Origin: Bilabrum cf. latius | Lineage: Eukaryota | Length of the DNA stretch: 64,000 nt | Assembly (NCBI GenBank): GCA_965178125.1 | Contig: OZ237738.1 | Location: 1,178,001 to 1,242,000, forward strand | Direction: 5' to 3' | Shown here: in pieces, positions 1 to 47,250 of the stretch | How the letters are laid out: every line of letters begins with the position of its first letter | Position numbering within the stretch: the first letter of the stretch is position 1 | The notes under the pieces: generated by a model | Told to the model about the DNA's origin: nothing | The model's database searches: none | Seen by the model: the letters and a program-made list of their open reading frames with translations, nothing else | Program-made: the position numbers and the translations under genes

Positions 1-3000
1 CCCATCTACAAAGAGGATTTCGAGGAGATCGAGCGCCTCAAAGAAGAGGCCAAAGACCGCCAGTTCGAGGAGAGCAATCCAGAGTTCGTGGCGAACTTTC
101 TCTCGGACCAGAAGAAGAGGGAAGAGACGCGGAAGAAACGAGCAGACGACGCAGAGCGGCTCAAGAAGCAGGGAACAGAGGCCTACAAGGAGGGACGGCT
201 GGACCACGCCATGGGCTGCTGGCTCGAGTCGGTGCGGCTGGTGCCTTTCCAGGAGCAGGTGCTAACCAACGTCGCACAGCTTTGCATCCGCATGGGCAAA
301 CCGGAGGAAGCCCTTGAGTTCGCCCGGCGCGCCATCTTCATCGCTCCGGGCAATCCCAAGGCCCTCTTCCGCCGCGCCACTGCCCGACGCGTACTCAAGG
401 ACGTGCATGGGTGGGCCGCGGACATGAAGCGCGCTGCGGAGCGCGCTCCAAAGGACCTTAAGCTGTCCTCGCAGGCCCAACAGGCTGCTGAGTTATCGGC
501 ACAGCTGCGCAGAGCCGAAATCCTCGACCATCTAGTGGCTGGCACCTCACTTGGCAAGACTGCTAGATCAGGATCTGGATCGGGATCGGGCAGCGGCGTC
601 GCAACGGGTGGGGGCTCTGGTGGTCTGAGCCCTGCAGTTGTGGAGCTGCTGCGCGAAACGAGCGAGGCAATCCACGGCTTGCCCGGCTTTGTGGTAGGGA
701 GGGGGGATGAACAGCCGGGCGACACGACATAGGATGCTGCGACCGGGGCCACGCCATCCGGATCGGTGGCACCCTCTGGCGGCAGCAGCCGCAGTCCTGC
801 CCGTGGGTCTGCAACAGCAGCTGCGCAGCTCCAGAAGCTAGTCAACTGCGTGCTCTCTGCAAGCATGCAAAGCCAGCAGAGCACAGGAGGTGCGGCACCT
901 TCGGCAAGCACGGAAGACTCTCCACGCGTGCTGGTGCGAGCACTTTTGCTGCGGACCGGTGCCCTTACTTTCATCGCGAGAGGCCTGGTACGACTGCTTG
1001 AGTCAAGCGCGGGCCAGCCAGGCACGGCGAGCGCGCAATCACGGGAAGCTGTGCGCGAGCTGGACCTGCCTGGTCTCGCGCTGTCCTCCACTGGAGCCAC
1101 CAAGTCTGCCTTCAACCTGCTGACAGCATCCGTCTCTGGCACCGCCAGCTCCTGCAGGGAACTATTGCAGAACCAGGGAGTACTAGGCGCATGCGTGCTT
1201 TTCCTCACTCACCTGAGCGGGCTGAAGTCGCCCTCGGAGTCCTGCACCGCAGCGGATATTGCGGCCAGGGGGATCGCGAGCGGGAAGTCCCCCGCTGGCC
1301 CGGGAGTCGAGGGACTGGTGAAGAAGAAGGACTCGGTCAGGTGGGCTGTCGCTCGCCATGCCCTCCGATTCCTGCGGACCGCGTGCGGGGCAGAGTCGCC
1401 GGAGCAGGACGCGTCTGCCATGCTGTGCCTTTCGGAGGTGCTAGTCGGCTCGCAAGTCCTGGAGGCAAGCACTGCATCAGAAAAGGTAGCCGCATCGAAA
1501 CCAAGGCCGAGCGTCTTCGCGCCGCTGGAAGAGCGCGTGAAAGGTAGTGGGCCATCGGCTGGAAGCGCTGCTGCTTCTGCAGCCTCACGGAAAGACTCTG
1601 AAAGTGAGGGTGGTGAGCTAGGCCCCCGTGTGCGGCATGGGGGGTTGCTAGCACCTGCAGCTGCGCGGTAGTTGTCCAAGGCAGCAGGACGTGGCAAGAC
1701 TGCTATCGCGCCTCAAATCGGCATCGCAAAGGTCATCTCGGCAGCAGCGGGTGCGTTTGGCCCGGGGCCGATTGACATTGCGCTCATGACACGATAGATG
1801 GTACAAGGAACTCGCGGGGGGGTGGACAAAGGCAGCGTAGATGGCTCGCTGGGGGCAGAAATGCAAAGGCACGGACAGGTGGTGCTGGGCGGTATGGAGG
1901 CATTGGAGCACGCTTGCGAGCTACTATCGGCGGCATGCACGCCTCGTGTTCGCAGGGCTCTCCCGGCCCCCGTCCGTCAAGCCATGGATGCATCCGGATT
2001 CGCTGACGTGGTGCCACCCGTGAGAGCGGATGCAGCACCAGCGAGCGGTGCCGCTGCCTCCTCGTCCTCCCCTGGGTCTGGGTCAAGCAGCACGGCGATG
2101 GTCCCTGCAGGCGCATCCTCGTCCGCATCGATTGCCTCAAGCACGGCTGAAGGGCATGGGCTCGTGCCGGTGCCGACTCCCGCTGCTGGAGTGCAGGTTG
2201 TGCTGGCAGTCTGCAGGGGTGTCAATGCCATCCTGGGTAGGTACGCCCACGACGGCGTCTCTCTTACTTCGGATGCTATGGAGAGTGCGCTGCACCTAGC
2301 CATGGAGCTTGCGCGGATGGAGGGCACGCGGCCCGCCTTTGCGACCGCTCTGCCTTCCGCTACCATGGGCGGGCAGGACGAGGCGGTCGAACTCCCTGCG
2401 GCTGTGACACTCTGGAACCTGGCCACTTTCACGGACCTCCCAGGGCAGGGCCCTAAGGAATCCAGTTCCTCTGCTTCTGATGCGTAGTCCCAGACTGCAG
2501 GTCGGAACAGGGTACAGGCCACCGCATTGCAGATCATATCGAACGCGTGTCACGGCGTGCATGGCGCACAGCTTGTGGTTTCGCTTGCAGATCAGTCCAA
2601 GGTCCCCGATGCCCTCCCCACGCTCCTTCGGCTCGCTGTCCATGGCACGCTCAAGGGAGCATCGCCAGCAGCAGCACCCACCAAGTCGGGCGGGAGACCT
2701 GACCTCTCGATTCCGTCCAGTGGAATTGCCAGCATGGACAGCAAGGCTACGCAGCACGTGTCGTGGCTGCTCACCGGTACGGCGCCCGATGACGCACCCA
2801 AGCGATCGGCTGCGGATCGCAGCGCCGCCTTGCTCGCCATGGGATTCCGATAGACTGCTTGTGGTGTAGTGTCTAGACTGGCACCCGCTCTCTAGCGATC
2901 TGATTTGCAGACTGCAGGCACGATGCAGACGTGCCTGCAGGCTATCGATTGGCACGCAAAGGCGCTCGCGCGAGCTCTTCGCATCGGAAAGGCCGGCGAG

Positions 3001-3501
3001 GCCACGCCAAAGGCCACGCATGCGGTAGCCGACAAGCTCTGGGGCATCATGTCTGCGTTTGCCAAGACCCTTGGGCACGCTACGTCCGACGCCGCTGGTA
3101 GATCTGTGCTGGTTGCGAAGGCTGGATCTCCCATCATCGGCAGGGCGGTTTCGGTTGCGTCCAGGTGGATGGTGGCCAGCACGCAGCCAGCCGAGGTTCT
3201 GAAGCGGGATGGTGGCCGGCCCGTACACTCGCTGGTCCTGTCCAGCGGGAACCTGGTCAAAGTCGTCATCAACCTGACCCAGGCCGACGTGGATGCTGCG
3301 GAATGTGCTGGCTTGCTCGCGCAGCACGCGGTGGATCGGATCTTGGACCTGGTCAAGTACGCTGGGCCGGGACAGGTCAGAAACAACGGCGCGATTGCCC
3401 TCGCCCGGATGGCCGCACGGCATGCGCCCAGTAAAGCGAGGTTGAAGGAGCTGGGAGGGACCAAGGTGCTCTTGCAGCTTCAGAGGGAGCTGCCCAAGTG
3501 A
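1..3501 (+). CDS. TTC12: TPR + armadillo-repeat protein, TTC12-like (5'-truncated by window edge)
   Basis: One frame is open from base 1 to TGA 3499-3501 when six in-frame TAGs (730, 1669, 1795, 2485, 2851, 2893) are read through. N-terminal TPRs (AERLKKQGTEAYKEG...KALFRRATAR); C-terminal ARM-like end RNNGAIALARMA...RLKELGG resembles TTC12. Confidence 0.7.
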
Positions 3502-3636
3502 GCGGTGAGGCTGGCCATGAGATGACGACTAAAAATCCGATTTGGACAAGGATCCTCTAAAGACGCATGGGTTCGCAAAAGAATTTCAAGAAAGCCAAGC
3601 CCAGATTAATACATCTGGTTCAAAGAGAGGTTTGCG

Positions 3637-45574: not shown

Positions 45575-45852
45575 TGACGAGGGGCTGCGGTCATTGATTT
45601 TTCAATTGCTGGATCCATCACAATCATCCGGTCCTGGCGCCTTCGGTTGACTCTAGAAGACGCGTTTAGCACATACAGACCAAACTTTGGTTTACACTTC
45701 GCTAAGCTTGTTTATTGTGGACAATCTTGAAGCTCAGAAGGGCTCATTATCGAGACTTGCATCAGGGCTTACTTTGGTTTTGCAAGCTCCTTTATTACTG
45801 CGTTGAAGCTTACAATTGCAGCAAGGTTAGTCTCTGTGTGAGATCGCTGACC

Positions 45853-47250
45853 ATGCCATCGCGCAGGGATTGCTCAGAAGTCGTCGATCTCGTGAGCAAC
45901 TCCAGTGACAGCAGTGACAGCGACAGCGACAGCGGTGGGAGCCAGTTTGGGGGTGTCTCACTAGCTGTATAGTCAACACTTCGTAGAAAGACCAGCACTG
46001 GCCGCCGTCGTACTAGCTCAGGACAGAATGCTCGCGAGGCTGCTATTCGCTTGCAGCCTGAAGCACCCGGCGGGTTTTCAGAAGATGTATGTGTATCAGT
46101 GGGGTGCAAACGCGGCAGGGTGTCGAGCAATACCTCATCATAGTCTTCTTCAAGCCCCGAACACCTTGGGGACTCGATAAAGAGGCGGAGGAGGGAGGCA
46201 GGCGGGGCAGCTGATGGGTTCCGCTGCGAGATTTGTTGGAAATTGCTTAGCTCGGCAATGAGCTTGAGGAGGCACATGTCCGTGGTGCACCTGGGCGAGC
46301 GCAAGCACGAGTGCAGTGTGTGCGGCAAGGCATTCGGGCAGGCAGGCAATCTCAGGAAGCACATGTCCGTGGTGCACCTGGGCGAGCGCAAGCACGAGTG
46401 CAGTGTGTGCGGCAAGGCATTCGGGGAGGCAGGCAGTCTCAGGAAGCACATGTCCGTGGTGCACCTGGGCGAGCGCAAGCACGAGTGCAGTGTGTGCGGC
46501 AAGGCATTCGGGGAGGCAGGCAGTCTCAGGAAGCACATGTCCGTGGTGCACCTGGGCGAGCGCAAGCACGAGTGCAGTGTGTGCGGCAAGGCATTCGGGC
46601 AGGCAGGCCATCTCAGGAATCACATGTCCGTGGTGCACCTGGGCTAGCGCAAGCACGAGTGCAGTGTGTGCGGCAAGGCATTCGGGCAGGCAGGCCATCT
46701 CAGGAAGCACATGTCCGTGGTGCACCTGGGCGAGCGCAAGCACGAGTGCAGTGTGTGCGGCAAGGCATTCGGGCAGGCAGGCAATCTCAGGAATCACGTG
46801 TCCGTGGTGCACCTGGGCGAGCGCAAGCACGAGTGCAGTGTGTGCGGCAAGGCATTCGGGCAGGCAGGCGATCTCAGGAAGCACATGTCCGTGGTGCACC
46901 TGGGCGAGCGCAAGCACGAGTGCAGTGTGTGCGGCAAGGCATTCGGGCAGGCAGGCCATCTCAGGAAGCACATGTCCGTGGTGCACCTGGGCTAGCGCAA
47001 GCACGAGTGCAGTGTGTGCGGCAAGGCATTCGGGCAGGCAGGCCATCTCAGGAAGCACATGTCCGTGGTGCACCTGGGCGAGCGCAAGCACGAGTGCAGT
47101 GTGTGCGGCAAGGCATTCGGGCAGGCAGGCGATCTCAGGAAGCACATGTCCGTGGTGCACCTGGGCGAGCGCAAGCACGAGTGCAGTGTGTGCGGCAAGG
47201 CATTCGGGCAGGCAGGCGATCTCAGGAAGCACATGTCCGTGGTGCACTGA
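45853..47250 (+). CDS. C2H2 zinc-finger protein with 12 tandem fingers
   Basis: ATG 45853; four in-frame TAGs (45970, 46141, 46645, 46993); one divergent finger plus eleven HECSVCGKAFGxAGxLRxHMSVVH(LGERK) units; ends TGA. Confidence 0.9.
46268..47247 (+). repeat. 87-bp coding minisatellite (about 11 units)
   Basis: cacgagtgcagt recurs every 87 bp from 46306 to 47176. Confidence 0.95.

Follow-up and report, generated by a model that had tools for sequence, protein, structure and literature searches.

Probable reading of UAG as glutamine in a GC-rich eukaryotic nuclear locus and its virophage-like element

Gene content of the window

The window, by which we mean the whole stretch of 64,000 nucleotides analysed here, holds 13 host gene models in positions 1-47250, followed by an AT-rich (~31% GC) integrated element of virophage-like character that runs past the end of the window and is interrupted by a GC-rich insertion (Table 1). 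No tRNA genes and no eRF1 gene lie within the window.

Table 1. Features of the window, with in-frame TAG codons and stop codons
Feature	Position	Strand	Remarks
Host gene, N-terminal TPR repeats	1..3501	+	5' end cut by window; 6 TAG; stop TGA
Host gene, C2 domain and EF-hands	3637..5250	-	one TAG, between EF-hand pairs; stop TGA
Tandem paralogue A	8364..11984	+	2 TAG; 9183-9185 is CAG in paralogue B; stop TGA
Tandem paralogue B	12589..15972	+	CAG at 13408-13410; 2 TAG; stop TGA
2448-codon host gene	16178..23524	+	32 TAG; stop TAA
Ankyrin-repeat gene	23822..25648	-	4 TAG; stop TGA; covered by contigs of three runs
Vps18-like gene, intron (89 nt, GT..AG)	26072..26160	+	missing from contig of run X6
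Vps18-like gene, second exon	26161..30474	+	2 TAG within Pfam Pep3_Vps18 stretch; stop TGA
PH and AIR9-Ig gene, three exons	30626..32918	-	6 TAG; stop TAA
PH and AIR9-Ig gene, exons	32918-32871, 32773-32693, 32581-30626	-	
PH and AIR9-Ig gene, introns	32870-32774, 32692-32582	-	
Small PH-domain gene	33197..33799	+	2 TAG, one within PH domain; ends C-C-V-V-S, then TGA
TIR-domain gene	34609..38430	-	4 TAG, one within TIR_2 stretch; stop TGA
TPT-family transporter gene	39529..40752	-	one TAG, 50 codons upstream of TGA
Protein kinase gene	41261..45574	+	3 TAG; stop TGA
C2H2 zinc-finger array	45853..47250	+	4 TAG; TGA at junction with AT-rich element
Virophage-like element	47251..58200		ORFs hold 46 of 51 element TAGs; end in TAA or TGA
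rve integrase	51043..52200	+	7 TAG; codons 54, 148 and 291 at Gln-dominated columns
692-codon Gln-rich element ORF	52900..54978	-	13 TAG; stop TAA
Putative packaging ATPase, GKSGSGKS P-loop	56381..57481	+	3 TAG; stop TGA
Putative cysteine protease ORF (motif reading only)	57490..58065	+	6 TAG; stop TGA
GC-rich insertion, Ngaro-like repeat layout	58346..62837		
Insertion repeats	A1 58346-58545; B1 62330-62475; A2 62472-62671; B2 62692-62837		
Penton-like ORF	62890..63843	+	5 TAG; stop TAA

The integrase of the element scored 40.1 bits against the Pfam rve family, above the cut-off, with a weak chromodomain-like match at its C-terminus that stays below the Pfam cut-off, and the penton-like ORF reached 24.7 bits against Pfam V18-19 (Sputnik minor capsid), under the cut-off of 27. 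The putative ATPase has no Pfam match, yet it matches ORFs in virophage-like IMG/VR loci by tblastn, although no close relative of it was found in IMG/VR; the protease ORF, also without a Pfam match, matches ORFs in 6 virophage-like IMG/VR alignments. No major capsid gene was seen in the part of the element inside the window. The integrase contains one in-frame TAA (51415-51417), at which the closest homologue among the best 150 aligned has Glu and most others have gaps, and which looks like a nonsense mutation. On account of this TAA and of a transposon insertion, we read the element as probably defective.

In-frame TAG codons and the remaining stop codons

The preliminary description of this locus held that host genes are broken by TAG but continue in the same frame, and this was borne out, with at least one in-frame TAG in all 13 of the 13 host gene models. 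These TAGs total 69, or about 0.5% of host codons, with 32 of them in the single 2448-codon gene. Across 12 of the models (12762 codons), the coding frames contain TAG, TAA, and TGA 66, 0, and 0 times, as compared with 156, 57, and 419 times in the other two frames together. When TAG is left open, ORFs of at least 500 codons in positions 1-47250 sum to 16886 codons, whereas the same 47 kb, simulated 100 times with a third-order Markov model, gave a mean sum of 617 and a maximum of 3299 codons. Eight of the ORFs exceed 1100 codons (one being the antisense shadow of another), and the longest simulated ORF has 1041. The pattern of in-frame TAGs in the window is confirmed as real.

The element carries TAG at a higher density than the host, with 51 in the 3535 codons of 14 ORFs (1.4%). 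In these ORFs the in-frame counts of TAG, TAA, and TGA are 51, 0, and 0 versus 156, 404, and 269 in the other two frames. TAA closes most of the element ORFs (10 of 13 stop rows, counting the internal integrase TAA), and the host models close with TGA in 11 of 13 cases and with TAA in two. The earlier claim that genes end in TGA or TAA and never in TAG stands as far as these counts go, but "never TAG" follows in part from the ORF definition, in which TAG was left open. That TAA and TGA still act as stops in the window is supported; for instance, the CaaX-like end of the small PH-domain protein, right before its TGA, fits TGA as a true stop.

Several of the TAGs fall inside recognizable domains. 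Pfam domains run across TAG in the Vps18-like gene (two TAGs), a PH domain (one), TIR_2 (one), and rve. The preliminary description had placed TAGs inside kinase, PH, and Vps18 domains, which holds for the latter two; in the kinase, the translation places one TAG after the Gly-loop/Lys region and before the catalytic loop, and the best Pfam stretch begins just after this TAG.

Retention of TAG in spliced, RNA-like contigs

Contigs of run X6 lack three GT..AG introns, all of which are retained in a collinear DNA contig of run X1, and the X6 contigs were as such taken to be RNA-derived. Run X6 is catalogued as "RNA? (probably DNA)", and its RNA nature is inferred from these intron-less joints. 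Of the 48 in-frame TAGs in positions 16100-36000, 47 are present in X6 contigs with no differing letter, and the 48th was found in contigs of runs X7 and X8. A single RNA-like X6 contig matches 16100-23496 letter for letter (0 differences, 0 gaps) and stops short of the TAA of the 2448-codon gene. The check for splicing or editing of the TAGs, which had been proposed with the initial claim, therefore came out in its favor, as the TAGs were neither spliced out nor edited in these contigs. Based on the ORF structure, the Pfam domains crossing TAG, and the retention of TAGs in spliced RNA-like contigs, TAG is a sense codon in this window.

It is scarcely conceivable that the TAGs are untranslated, be it as nonsense codons of pseudogenes, as parts of introns that went unrecognised, as sites of RNA editing, or as errors of assembly. 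The probably defective state of the element would be in keeping with such decay, and passages of two papers trace premature stops of integrated viruses in other protists to assembly errors (PMC10120064, PMC8547959). However, neither TAA nor TGA occurs in frame, bar the one integrase TAA, while the other frames hold many of both, and 32 TAGs share one open frame of 2448 codons. Identical window sequence was found in runs of several studies, the intron-less contigs retain the TAGs with no changed letters, and TAGs occupy conserved Gln columns (see below).

A context-dependent code, in which UAG would be read as Gln within genes but would also end translation close to the 3' end of some mRNAs, is improbable. 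The only TAG of the TPT transporter comes after a basic tail, the last TAG of the 2448-codon gene lies 35 codons before its TAA with the end of the X6 contig falling between the two, and a terminating TAG would go unseen with ORFs built with TAG open. At 0.5% TAG per codon, though, chance alone would put a TAG in the last 40-50 codons of about 2 of the 13 genes, and contig ends are not transcript ends, since the Vps18 transcript is itself broken mid-gene (29939/29950). In addition, IMG/VR homologues still have residues aligned with a TAG lying 8 codons from the end of the protease ORF, no gene of the window requires TAG as its stop, and the base after TAG shows no bias, which argues against context-dependent leaky stops.

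Glutamine as the residue encoded by TAG

The identity of the residue was approached through alignment columns, codon families, and paralogues, which together support glutamine. A search with the integrase returned 2340 homologues at E<=0.001, the best 150 of which were aligned and the closest dropped, leaving 149. Among these, exactly 3 of the 385 integrase positions are dominated by Gln (at least 70%), and all three are TAG codons (hypergeometric P=3.7e-6), with Gln in 131, 128, and 113 of the 149 sequences. Glu was found at codons 54, 148, and 291 in only 5, 1, and 24 of the best 150 aligned homologues, and the log-odds summed over the three columns are +14.6 bits for Gln and -3.1 for Glu. 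In tblastn comparisons against 18 IMG/VR virophage-like loci behaving as standard-code, the integrase TAG positions face Gln in 14/14, 11/16, and 8/9 cases, and codons 99 and 140 of the protease, both TAG, face Gln in 4/6 cases each. Close Logan homologues have Gln at TAG positions in 4/5, 5/6, and 6/7 cases; these may be translated under a TAG=Gln model and are not independent. The ENA homologue P0157 terminates exactly before one TAG position.

Codon usage in the element points to the same residue, with 119 CAA, 4 CAG, and 51 TAG codons. The CAG/CAA ratio is far below those of GAG/GAA (58/197, Fisher P=2e-7) and AAG/AAA (96/279, P=2e-9), while the TAG:CAG ratio of 51:4 resembles the TTG:CTG ratio of 50:6 (P=0.74). 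Synonymous C-to-T change driven by AT pressure would be expected to leave just such a near-loss of CAG to TAG. For the tandem paralogues, the reported correspondence of TAG 9183 to CAG 13408 was found to hold; this is their one TAG/CAG difference, alongside one TAG at a common position.

The host genes discriminate less well. When seven residues were substituted in turn for TAG in three host Pfam domains, the summed scores were 98.5 bits for Gln, 97.8 for Glu, and 96.7 for Lys, with no real separation, and in the Vps18 domain Tyr and Glu scored slightly higher than Gln. The host TAGs lie in variable alignment columns, so that the assignment to Gln rests mainly on the element genes, presumably read by the same host ribosomes. 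TAG was found at conserved Gln columns in the integrase and protease of the element and not demonstrably so in the host. The PH first exon, which joins the next exon via a 97-nt GT..AG intron missing from the spliced contig, has TAG 32888-32886 (minus strand) in the context M-A-M-H-E-G-W-L-T-K-TAG-G; its position in GWLTK-TAG-G agrees with the earlier placement at the Q of the PH consensus, though it counts for little as an argument for Gln.

These host scores leave some room for UAG being a sense codon for glutamate or for a neighbouring residue, e.g., Lys or Tyr, a reading that we nevertheless consider very unlikely. Two of the 11 repeats of the zinc-finger array have TAG where the other nine have GAG (Glu), penton codon 21 (TAG) faces Glu in relatives, and protease codon 166 (TAG) faces Glu in 4/6 IMG/VR matches and in P0156. 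There is also precedent, as passages of PMC11687900 describe an uncultured ciliate that reads UAA as lysine and UAG as glutamate. Against this stand the rarity of Glu in the three Gln-dominated integrase columns and the fact that CAG has all but gone from the element, which only glutamine explains. With TAG counted as Glu, there would be too many Glu codons ending in G (109/197 versus 96/279 for AAG/AAA, P=0.006), and the CAG/CAA ratio of 4/119 would be left unexplained.

Comparison with known codes and implications

Overall, we consider it highly probable that the window comes from the nuclear genome of a GC-rich eukaryote that reads UAG as glutamine and retains UGA (mostly) and UAA as stops, i.e., NCBI table 15. 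According to passages of PMC5304391 and PMC11687900, UAG-only reassignment to Gln is known from the fornicate Iotanema spirale and the ciliates Protocruzia tuzeti, Hartmannula sinica, and Trochilia petrani. As in these organisms, UAG in the window is a sense codon at Gln positions, and UAA and UGA still end translation. Unlike them, the window is nuclear DNA of ~62% GC in which many genes follow one another over a long contiguous stretch, with GT..AG introns of 89-111 nt, and we take its composition to be unlike that of a ciliate macronucleus. Its stops are mostly TGA, whereas UAA is dominant in table 15 ciliates and Iotanema, going by parts of PMC5304391 and PMC11687900. The stated rarity of UAG-only reassignments is in line with what PMC11687900 conveys in part.

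The reassignment of both UAA and UAG to Gln (table 6) is described in sections of PMC11687900 for many ciliates, Hexamita, Streblomastix, Ulvophyceae, and aphelids. The window resembles these in reassigning a stop codon to Gln and differs in that TAA is not a sense codon but still serves as the stop of two of the 13 host models and of most ORFs in the element. Table 6 itself was ruled out for the window, with 0 in-frame TAA in the 16297 codons counted and TAA common off frame, and it gives no cleaner ORFs than the TAG-only reading.

By analogy with the mechanism presumed for Iotanema and the table 15 ciliates, UAG would be decoded by a tRNA-Gln of its own, whose anticodon, CUA, pairs with UAG and not with UAA; this tRNA may derive from tRNA-Gln(CUG) via one anticodon change. 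The eRF1 of the host would have lost efficient UAG recognition, as proposed in passages of PMC5304391 for Iotanema spirale. The virophage-like element appears to have adapted to the code of its host, as excerpts of PMC10120064 report for the integrated viruses of Streblomastix strix.

The code type has already been described, and the window is most likely a further case of it, possibly from a new lineage. That it represents an independent, hitherto undescribed origin of UAG-only reassignment to Gln in a non-ciliate eukaryote that is GC-rich and free-living, perhaps a virophage-carrying heterotrophic flagellate, is a tentative suggestion that we find quite possible without favoring it. The preliminary description had thought of a stramenopile or bicosoecid-like flagellate as the possible bearer of such a reassignment. 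If the reading as glutamine is true, the virophage has gone further than its host, having turned nearly all CAG into TAG, and the TAG density of the element with CAG nearly gone implies that element and host have long lived together under the variant code. UAG would then have to be read as Gln in the genes of any helper giant virus of this host too, and the code would be a barrier to, or a marker of, exchange among virus, host, and virophage.

A GC-rich insertion within the element

Passages of PMC8547959 describe endogenous mavirus-like virophages with Ngaro retrotransposons in Cafeteria burkhardae, whose genome has 70% GC, and they report no code change in that flagellate. Ngaro elements are defined there by split direct repeats, A1-[ORFs]-B1A2B2, together with RT, RNase H, and tyrosine recombinase. 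The window is similar in having a low-GC virophage-like element with an rve integrase in a high-GC host, and in the interruption of that element by a GC-rich insertion with A1-[..]-B1A2B2 split direct repeats. Unlike the Ngaro elements of C. burkhardae, the insertion contains no long ORFs, and the one internal ORF scanned had no match in Pfam. In place of the RT and recombinase ORFs, its interior consists of about ten copies of a 284-nt satellite.

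In-frame TAG codons in the host genes

The GC content of the window is about 62% over bases 1-47250 and about 31% over 47251-58200, followed by a GC-rich block at 58.2-62.8 kb and a final 1.2 kb that is AT-rich again. The proteins of the host part are eukaryotic, with TPR, C2 plus EF-hand, ankyrin, Vps18, PH, AIR9-Ig, TIR, TPT transporter and protein kinase domains as well as a C2H2 zinc-finger array, and in the Protein Atlas the Vps18-like and TPT proteins show similarity to families of eukaryotes. No tRNA gene was detected in the window by ARAGORN, and no Rfam family was found there.

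The preliminary description held that the host genes fragment under the standard code, and this is what we found: leaving TAG open fuses the fragments into ORFs of 2452, 1462, 1446, 1273, 1206, 1166 and 1127 codons. With TAG read as sense, ORFs of at least 500 codons total 16886 codons in the 47 kb host part. When this 47 kb was simulated 100 times with a third-order Markov model, the corresponding total averaged 617 and never exceeded 3299, and the longest ORF had 1041 codons. Releasing TAA as sense gained little in ORF length, and releasing TGA yielded no ORF above the simulated maximum of 1292.

In-frame TAG occurs in all 13 host models, at 69 sites including the first exon of the PH-domain gene, which confirms the original observation; the models close with TGA (11 of 13) or TAA (2 of 13). 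Counted over 12 of the host models, TAG, TAA and TGA number 66, 0 and 0 in the 12762 codons read in frame and 156, 57 and 419 in the remaining two frames of that DNA, i.e., TAG is about as frequent in frame as off frame while TGA and TAA are excluded from the frame; the zero counts arise partly by construction, as the frames were picked to be free of TAA and TGA, which is not true of the ORF lengths, the TAG-spanning Pfam domains or the transcripts. Searches of PDB sequences with the kinase, protease and TIR regions gave no alignment crossing a TAG.

A 738-codon frame free of TAA and TGA, with 8 TAGs, had neither a Pfam hit nor a codon-position GC signal and could have arisen by chance in GC-rich sequence; with nothing to support its status as a gene, it was excluded from every count. 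Two near-identical tandem paralogues encode a large protein with N-terminal hydrophobic stretches, for which no Pfam family was found.

Features of the window discussed in the text (positions in the window)
Feature	Position	Strand	Remark
TAA/TGA-free frame	5972-8188
Tandem paralogue, first copy	8364-11984
Tandem paralogue, second copy	12589-15972
Host gene of 2448 codons	16178-23524	+
Stretch skipped by X6 contigs	26072-26160		GT..AG
Stretch skipped by X6 contigs	32582-32692	-	CT..AC (GT..AG on minus strand)
Stretch skipped by X6 contigs	32774-32870	-	CT..AC (GT..AG on minus strand)
C-terminus of small PH-domain protein	33782-33799		C-C-V-V-S, then TGA
Last zinc-finger repeat and element start	47174-47260
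DUF285 repeat-protein gene	47770-48789
DUF285 repeat-protein gene	48879-49676
Integrase	51043-52200	+
In-frame TAA	51415-51417		inside integrase
Protease-like ORF	57490-58065	+
GC-rich insertion	58346-62837		Ngaro-style split direct repeats
Repeat A1	58346-58545
Repeat B1	62330-62475
Repeat A2	62472-62671
Repeat B2	62692-62837

Retention of TAG in spliced contigs

Contigs of four public sequencing runs were aligned over 16100-36000. Run X1 is DNA, and one of its contigs spans this entire region collinearly; the window may itself derive from this run. The contigs of run X6 break between genes and skip the stretches listed in the table, and from these intron-less joints we infer that they come from spliced RNA, although the run label reads 'RNA? 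(probably DNA)'; the RNA labels of X6-X8 are guesses, no run among those matching being listed as RNA. Over 16100-36000, X6 has no differing letter and no gap listed. Inside its pieces lie 47 of the 48 in-frame TAGs of the region, among them every one of the 32 in the 2448-codon gene; one of the pieces (32871-32934) was deduced from the 64 letters on one side of a joint. The 48th TAG lies inside X7 and X8 contigs. The possibility that the TAGs are spliced out or edited therefore finds no support, as X6 contigs without introns retain them unchanged.

The amino acid encoded by TAG

Within the window, TAG stands opposite CAG once in the host paralogues (which have one other TAG position in common), opposite GAG in two of the zinc-finger repeats, and opposite TGG once in a DUF285 repeat. 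Since CAG, GAG and TGG are all one-step neighbours of TAG, comparing paralogues and repeats alone cannot name the amino acid. Host domains alone are likewise uninformative: when each of seven residues was tried in place of TAG across the TIR, Vps18 and PH domains, the summed Pfam scores were 98.5 for Gln, 97.8 for Glu and 96.7 for Lys, a spread of less than 2 bits.

A search of 1.84 billion representatives with the integrase of the AT-rich element gave 2340 homologues at E<=0.001. The alignment used the best 150 of these, from which one 74%-identical homologue (P0006), whose own code is uncertain, was removed, leaving 149. Of the 385 positions of the query, 66 fall in columns with at least 70% conservation, and exactly three of these are Gln columns, at codons 54, 148 and 291, all of which are TAG in the window (hypergeometric P=3.7e-6 for the coincidence). 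Among these best homologues, Gln occupies the three positions in 131/149, 128/149 and 113/149 sequences, respectively. The log-odds summed over the six usable TAG columns of the integrase are +14.6 bits for Gln, -3.1 for Glu and -6.5 for Met.

The same positions were compared by tblastn with 18 virophage-like loci from IMG/VR, which behave as standard-code and in which Q is a real CAA or CAG. Gln was found at integrase codons 54, 148 and 291 in 14/14, 11/16 and 8/9 cases and at each of protease codons 99 and 140 in 4/6; protease codon 166 is Glu in 4/6, and the other protease TAG positions have mixed residues. Word-indexed protein searches returned one match for the penton and two for the protease; each is a close relative of uncertain translation code. 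The Vps18-like protein had no match, probably owing to an excess of low-complexity words.

Codon families in the element point the same way. Its 3535 codons include 119 CAA, 4 CAG and 51 TAG, with GAG/GAA at 58/197, AAG/AAA at 96/279, TTG/TTA at 50/165 and 6 CTG. CAG is thus scarce relative to GAG (Fisher P=2e-7) and AAG (Fisher P=2e-9), and the TAG:CAG ratio of 51:4 matches the TTG:CTG ratio of 50:6 (P=0.74). Such numbers would follow if CAG-to-TAG were a synonymous change under AT pressure, as CTG-to-TTG is, and no assignment of TAG other than Gln explains these codon families. The corresponding host counts are 348 CAG, 66 TAG and 63 CAA, so that the extra Gln codon of the host has been taken up more thoroughly by the element than by the host itself. 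As far as literature searches show, near-complete replacement of CAG by TAG in a virophage is unreported. Gln in the host genes is supported by the translation system, which host and element presumably share, and by the single CAG/TAG pair.

TAA and TGA as stop codons

In the AT-rich element, the two non-coding frames contain 404 TAA codons and the coding frames, with one exception, none. The exception lies inside the rve core of the integrase, where the Pfam rve stretch crosses it, at a position that is Glu in the 74%-identical closest homologue and a gap in most others. It is probably the product of a nonsense mutation (GAA to TAA) in an element copy that is decaying, rather than a second reassigned codon. 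TAG might also terminate some genes: one host gene has a TAG 35 codons ahead of its stop and another has one 50 codons ahead, roughly the chance expectation for a codon at 0.5% frequency. The ends of contigs do not mark the ends of transcripts. Overall, the integrase columns, the codon families and the stop usage support the code first proposed, with UAG as Gln and UAA and UGA as stops. NCBI table 6, in which TAA is Gln as well, was also tried and did not improve the ORFs.

One terminal TGA directly follows a C-C-V-V-S motif at the end of the small PH-domain protein, which by motif reading is a putative CaaX-like prenylation signal.

Decoding of UAG and relation to known codes

UAG is decoded efficiently, given that 32 UAGs in one gene are incompatible with expression by leaky read-through and that the base following TAG shows no bias. 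UAG without UAA can be read by a CUA anticodon only (PMC5304391). A tRNA-Gln(CUA), one mutation away from tRNA-Gln(CUG), would decode it, and eRF1 would have to lose affinity for UAG (cf. PMC5304391). In Iotanema, a change affects the Thr of the eRF1 GTS motif, a residue in contact with the third base of the stop codon.

This kind of code is already known, and the window is most likely a further case of a UAG-only Gln code. Such codes are described in Iotanema spirale, Protocruzia tuzeti, Hartmannula sinica and Trochilia petrani; the same source reports that UAG alone has changed to Ser in Scotinosphaera and to Leu in some ciliates and one rhizarian, as well as one uncultured ciliate with UAG as Glu and UAA as Lys, and treats eukaryotic codes in which UAG and UAA differ in meaning as rare, with only a handful of cases (PMC11687900). 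Our literature searches, which were mostly outside subscription journals, turned up no flagellate, bicosoecid or virophage host described as reading UAG as Gln; the present organism may represent an independent new lineage of this code.

Split UAG/UAA codes are relevant to the question of how one eRF1 comes to ignore a particular stop codon, and a GC-rich, genome-level case with introns, public RNA data and long contigs would be useful for finding the tRNA and eRF1 changes. Annotation under the standard code would break nearly every gene of the organism, all 13 host models here would be truncated, and the integrated virus would resemble a wreck of pseudogenes. The shift from CAG to TAG in the element is a clean natural illustration of a reassigned codon that responds to mutation pressure like any other synonymous codon. 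In Streblomastix strix, too, integrated viruses follow the variant code of the host (PMC10120064).

The virophage-like element and its surroundings

The AT-rich part is a virophage-like integrated element. Its products include an rve integrase, in which there is a weak chromodomain-like match, proteins with DUF285 repeats, a P-loop protein, a penton resembling Sputnik V18/19 (24.7 bits, under the Pfam cut-off) and, in our reading, a putative cysteine protease. No relatives of the putative ATPase were found in the IMG/VR scan, nor in the phage collection by tblastn. The GC-rich insertion lies between the protease-like and penton-like genes, and its interior has about 10 copies of a 284-nt satellite in place of RT or recombinase genes. 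An exact 50-mer from its repeat was absent from the metagenome contigs.

The arrangement recalls Cafeteria burkhardae, in which a GC-rich element whose split repeats run A1...B1A2B2 likewise interrupts a low-GC virophage in a high-GC host; in contrast to the present host, however, its genome has 70% GC, and for the terms searched that source yielded no code change (PMC8547959). Halocafeteria seosinensis differs in having 47% host GC and no Ngaro. The misfit of both species is judged on such features, which is not a phylogenetic test.

The last zinc-finger repeat departs from its sister repeats exactly at the start of the AT-rich element, and the TGA of the zinc-finger gene sits at this junction. 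From the sequence, the element appears to have inserted into the zinc-finger gene, cutting it short. At the left end of the element, the two adjoining DUF285 repeat-protein genes are 83-88% identical in head and tail. A 121-residue homologue of the protease-like ORF from ENA (P0157) starts with a piece that Pfam assigns to PF01255 (prenyl transferase family); the protease-like N-terminus follows as an in-frame fusion, and the protein ends exactly before the position of TAG codon 99 in the window, as if a standard-code gene caller had stopped at TAG.
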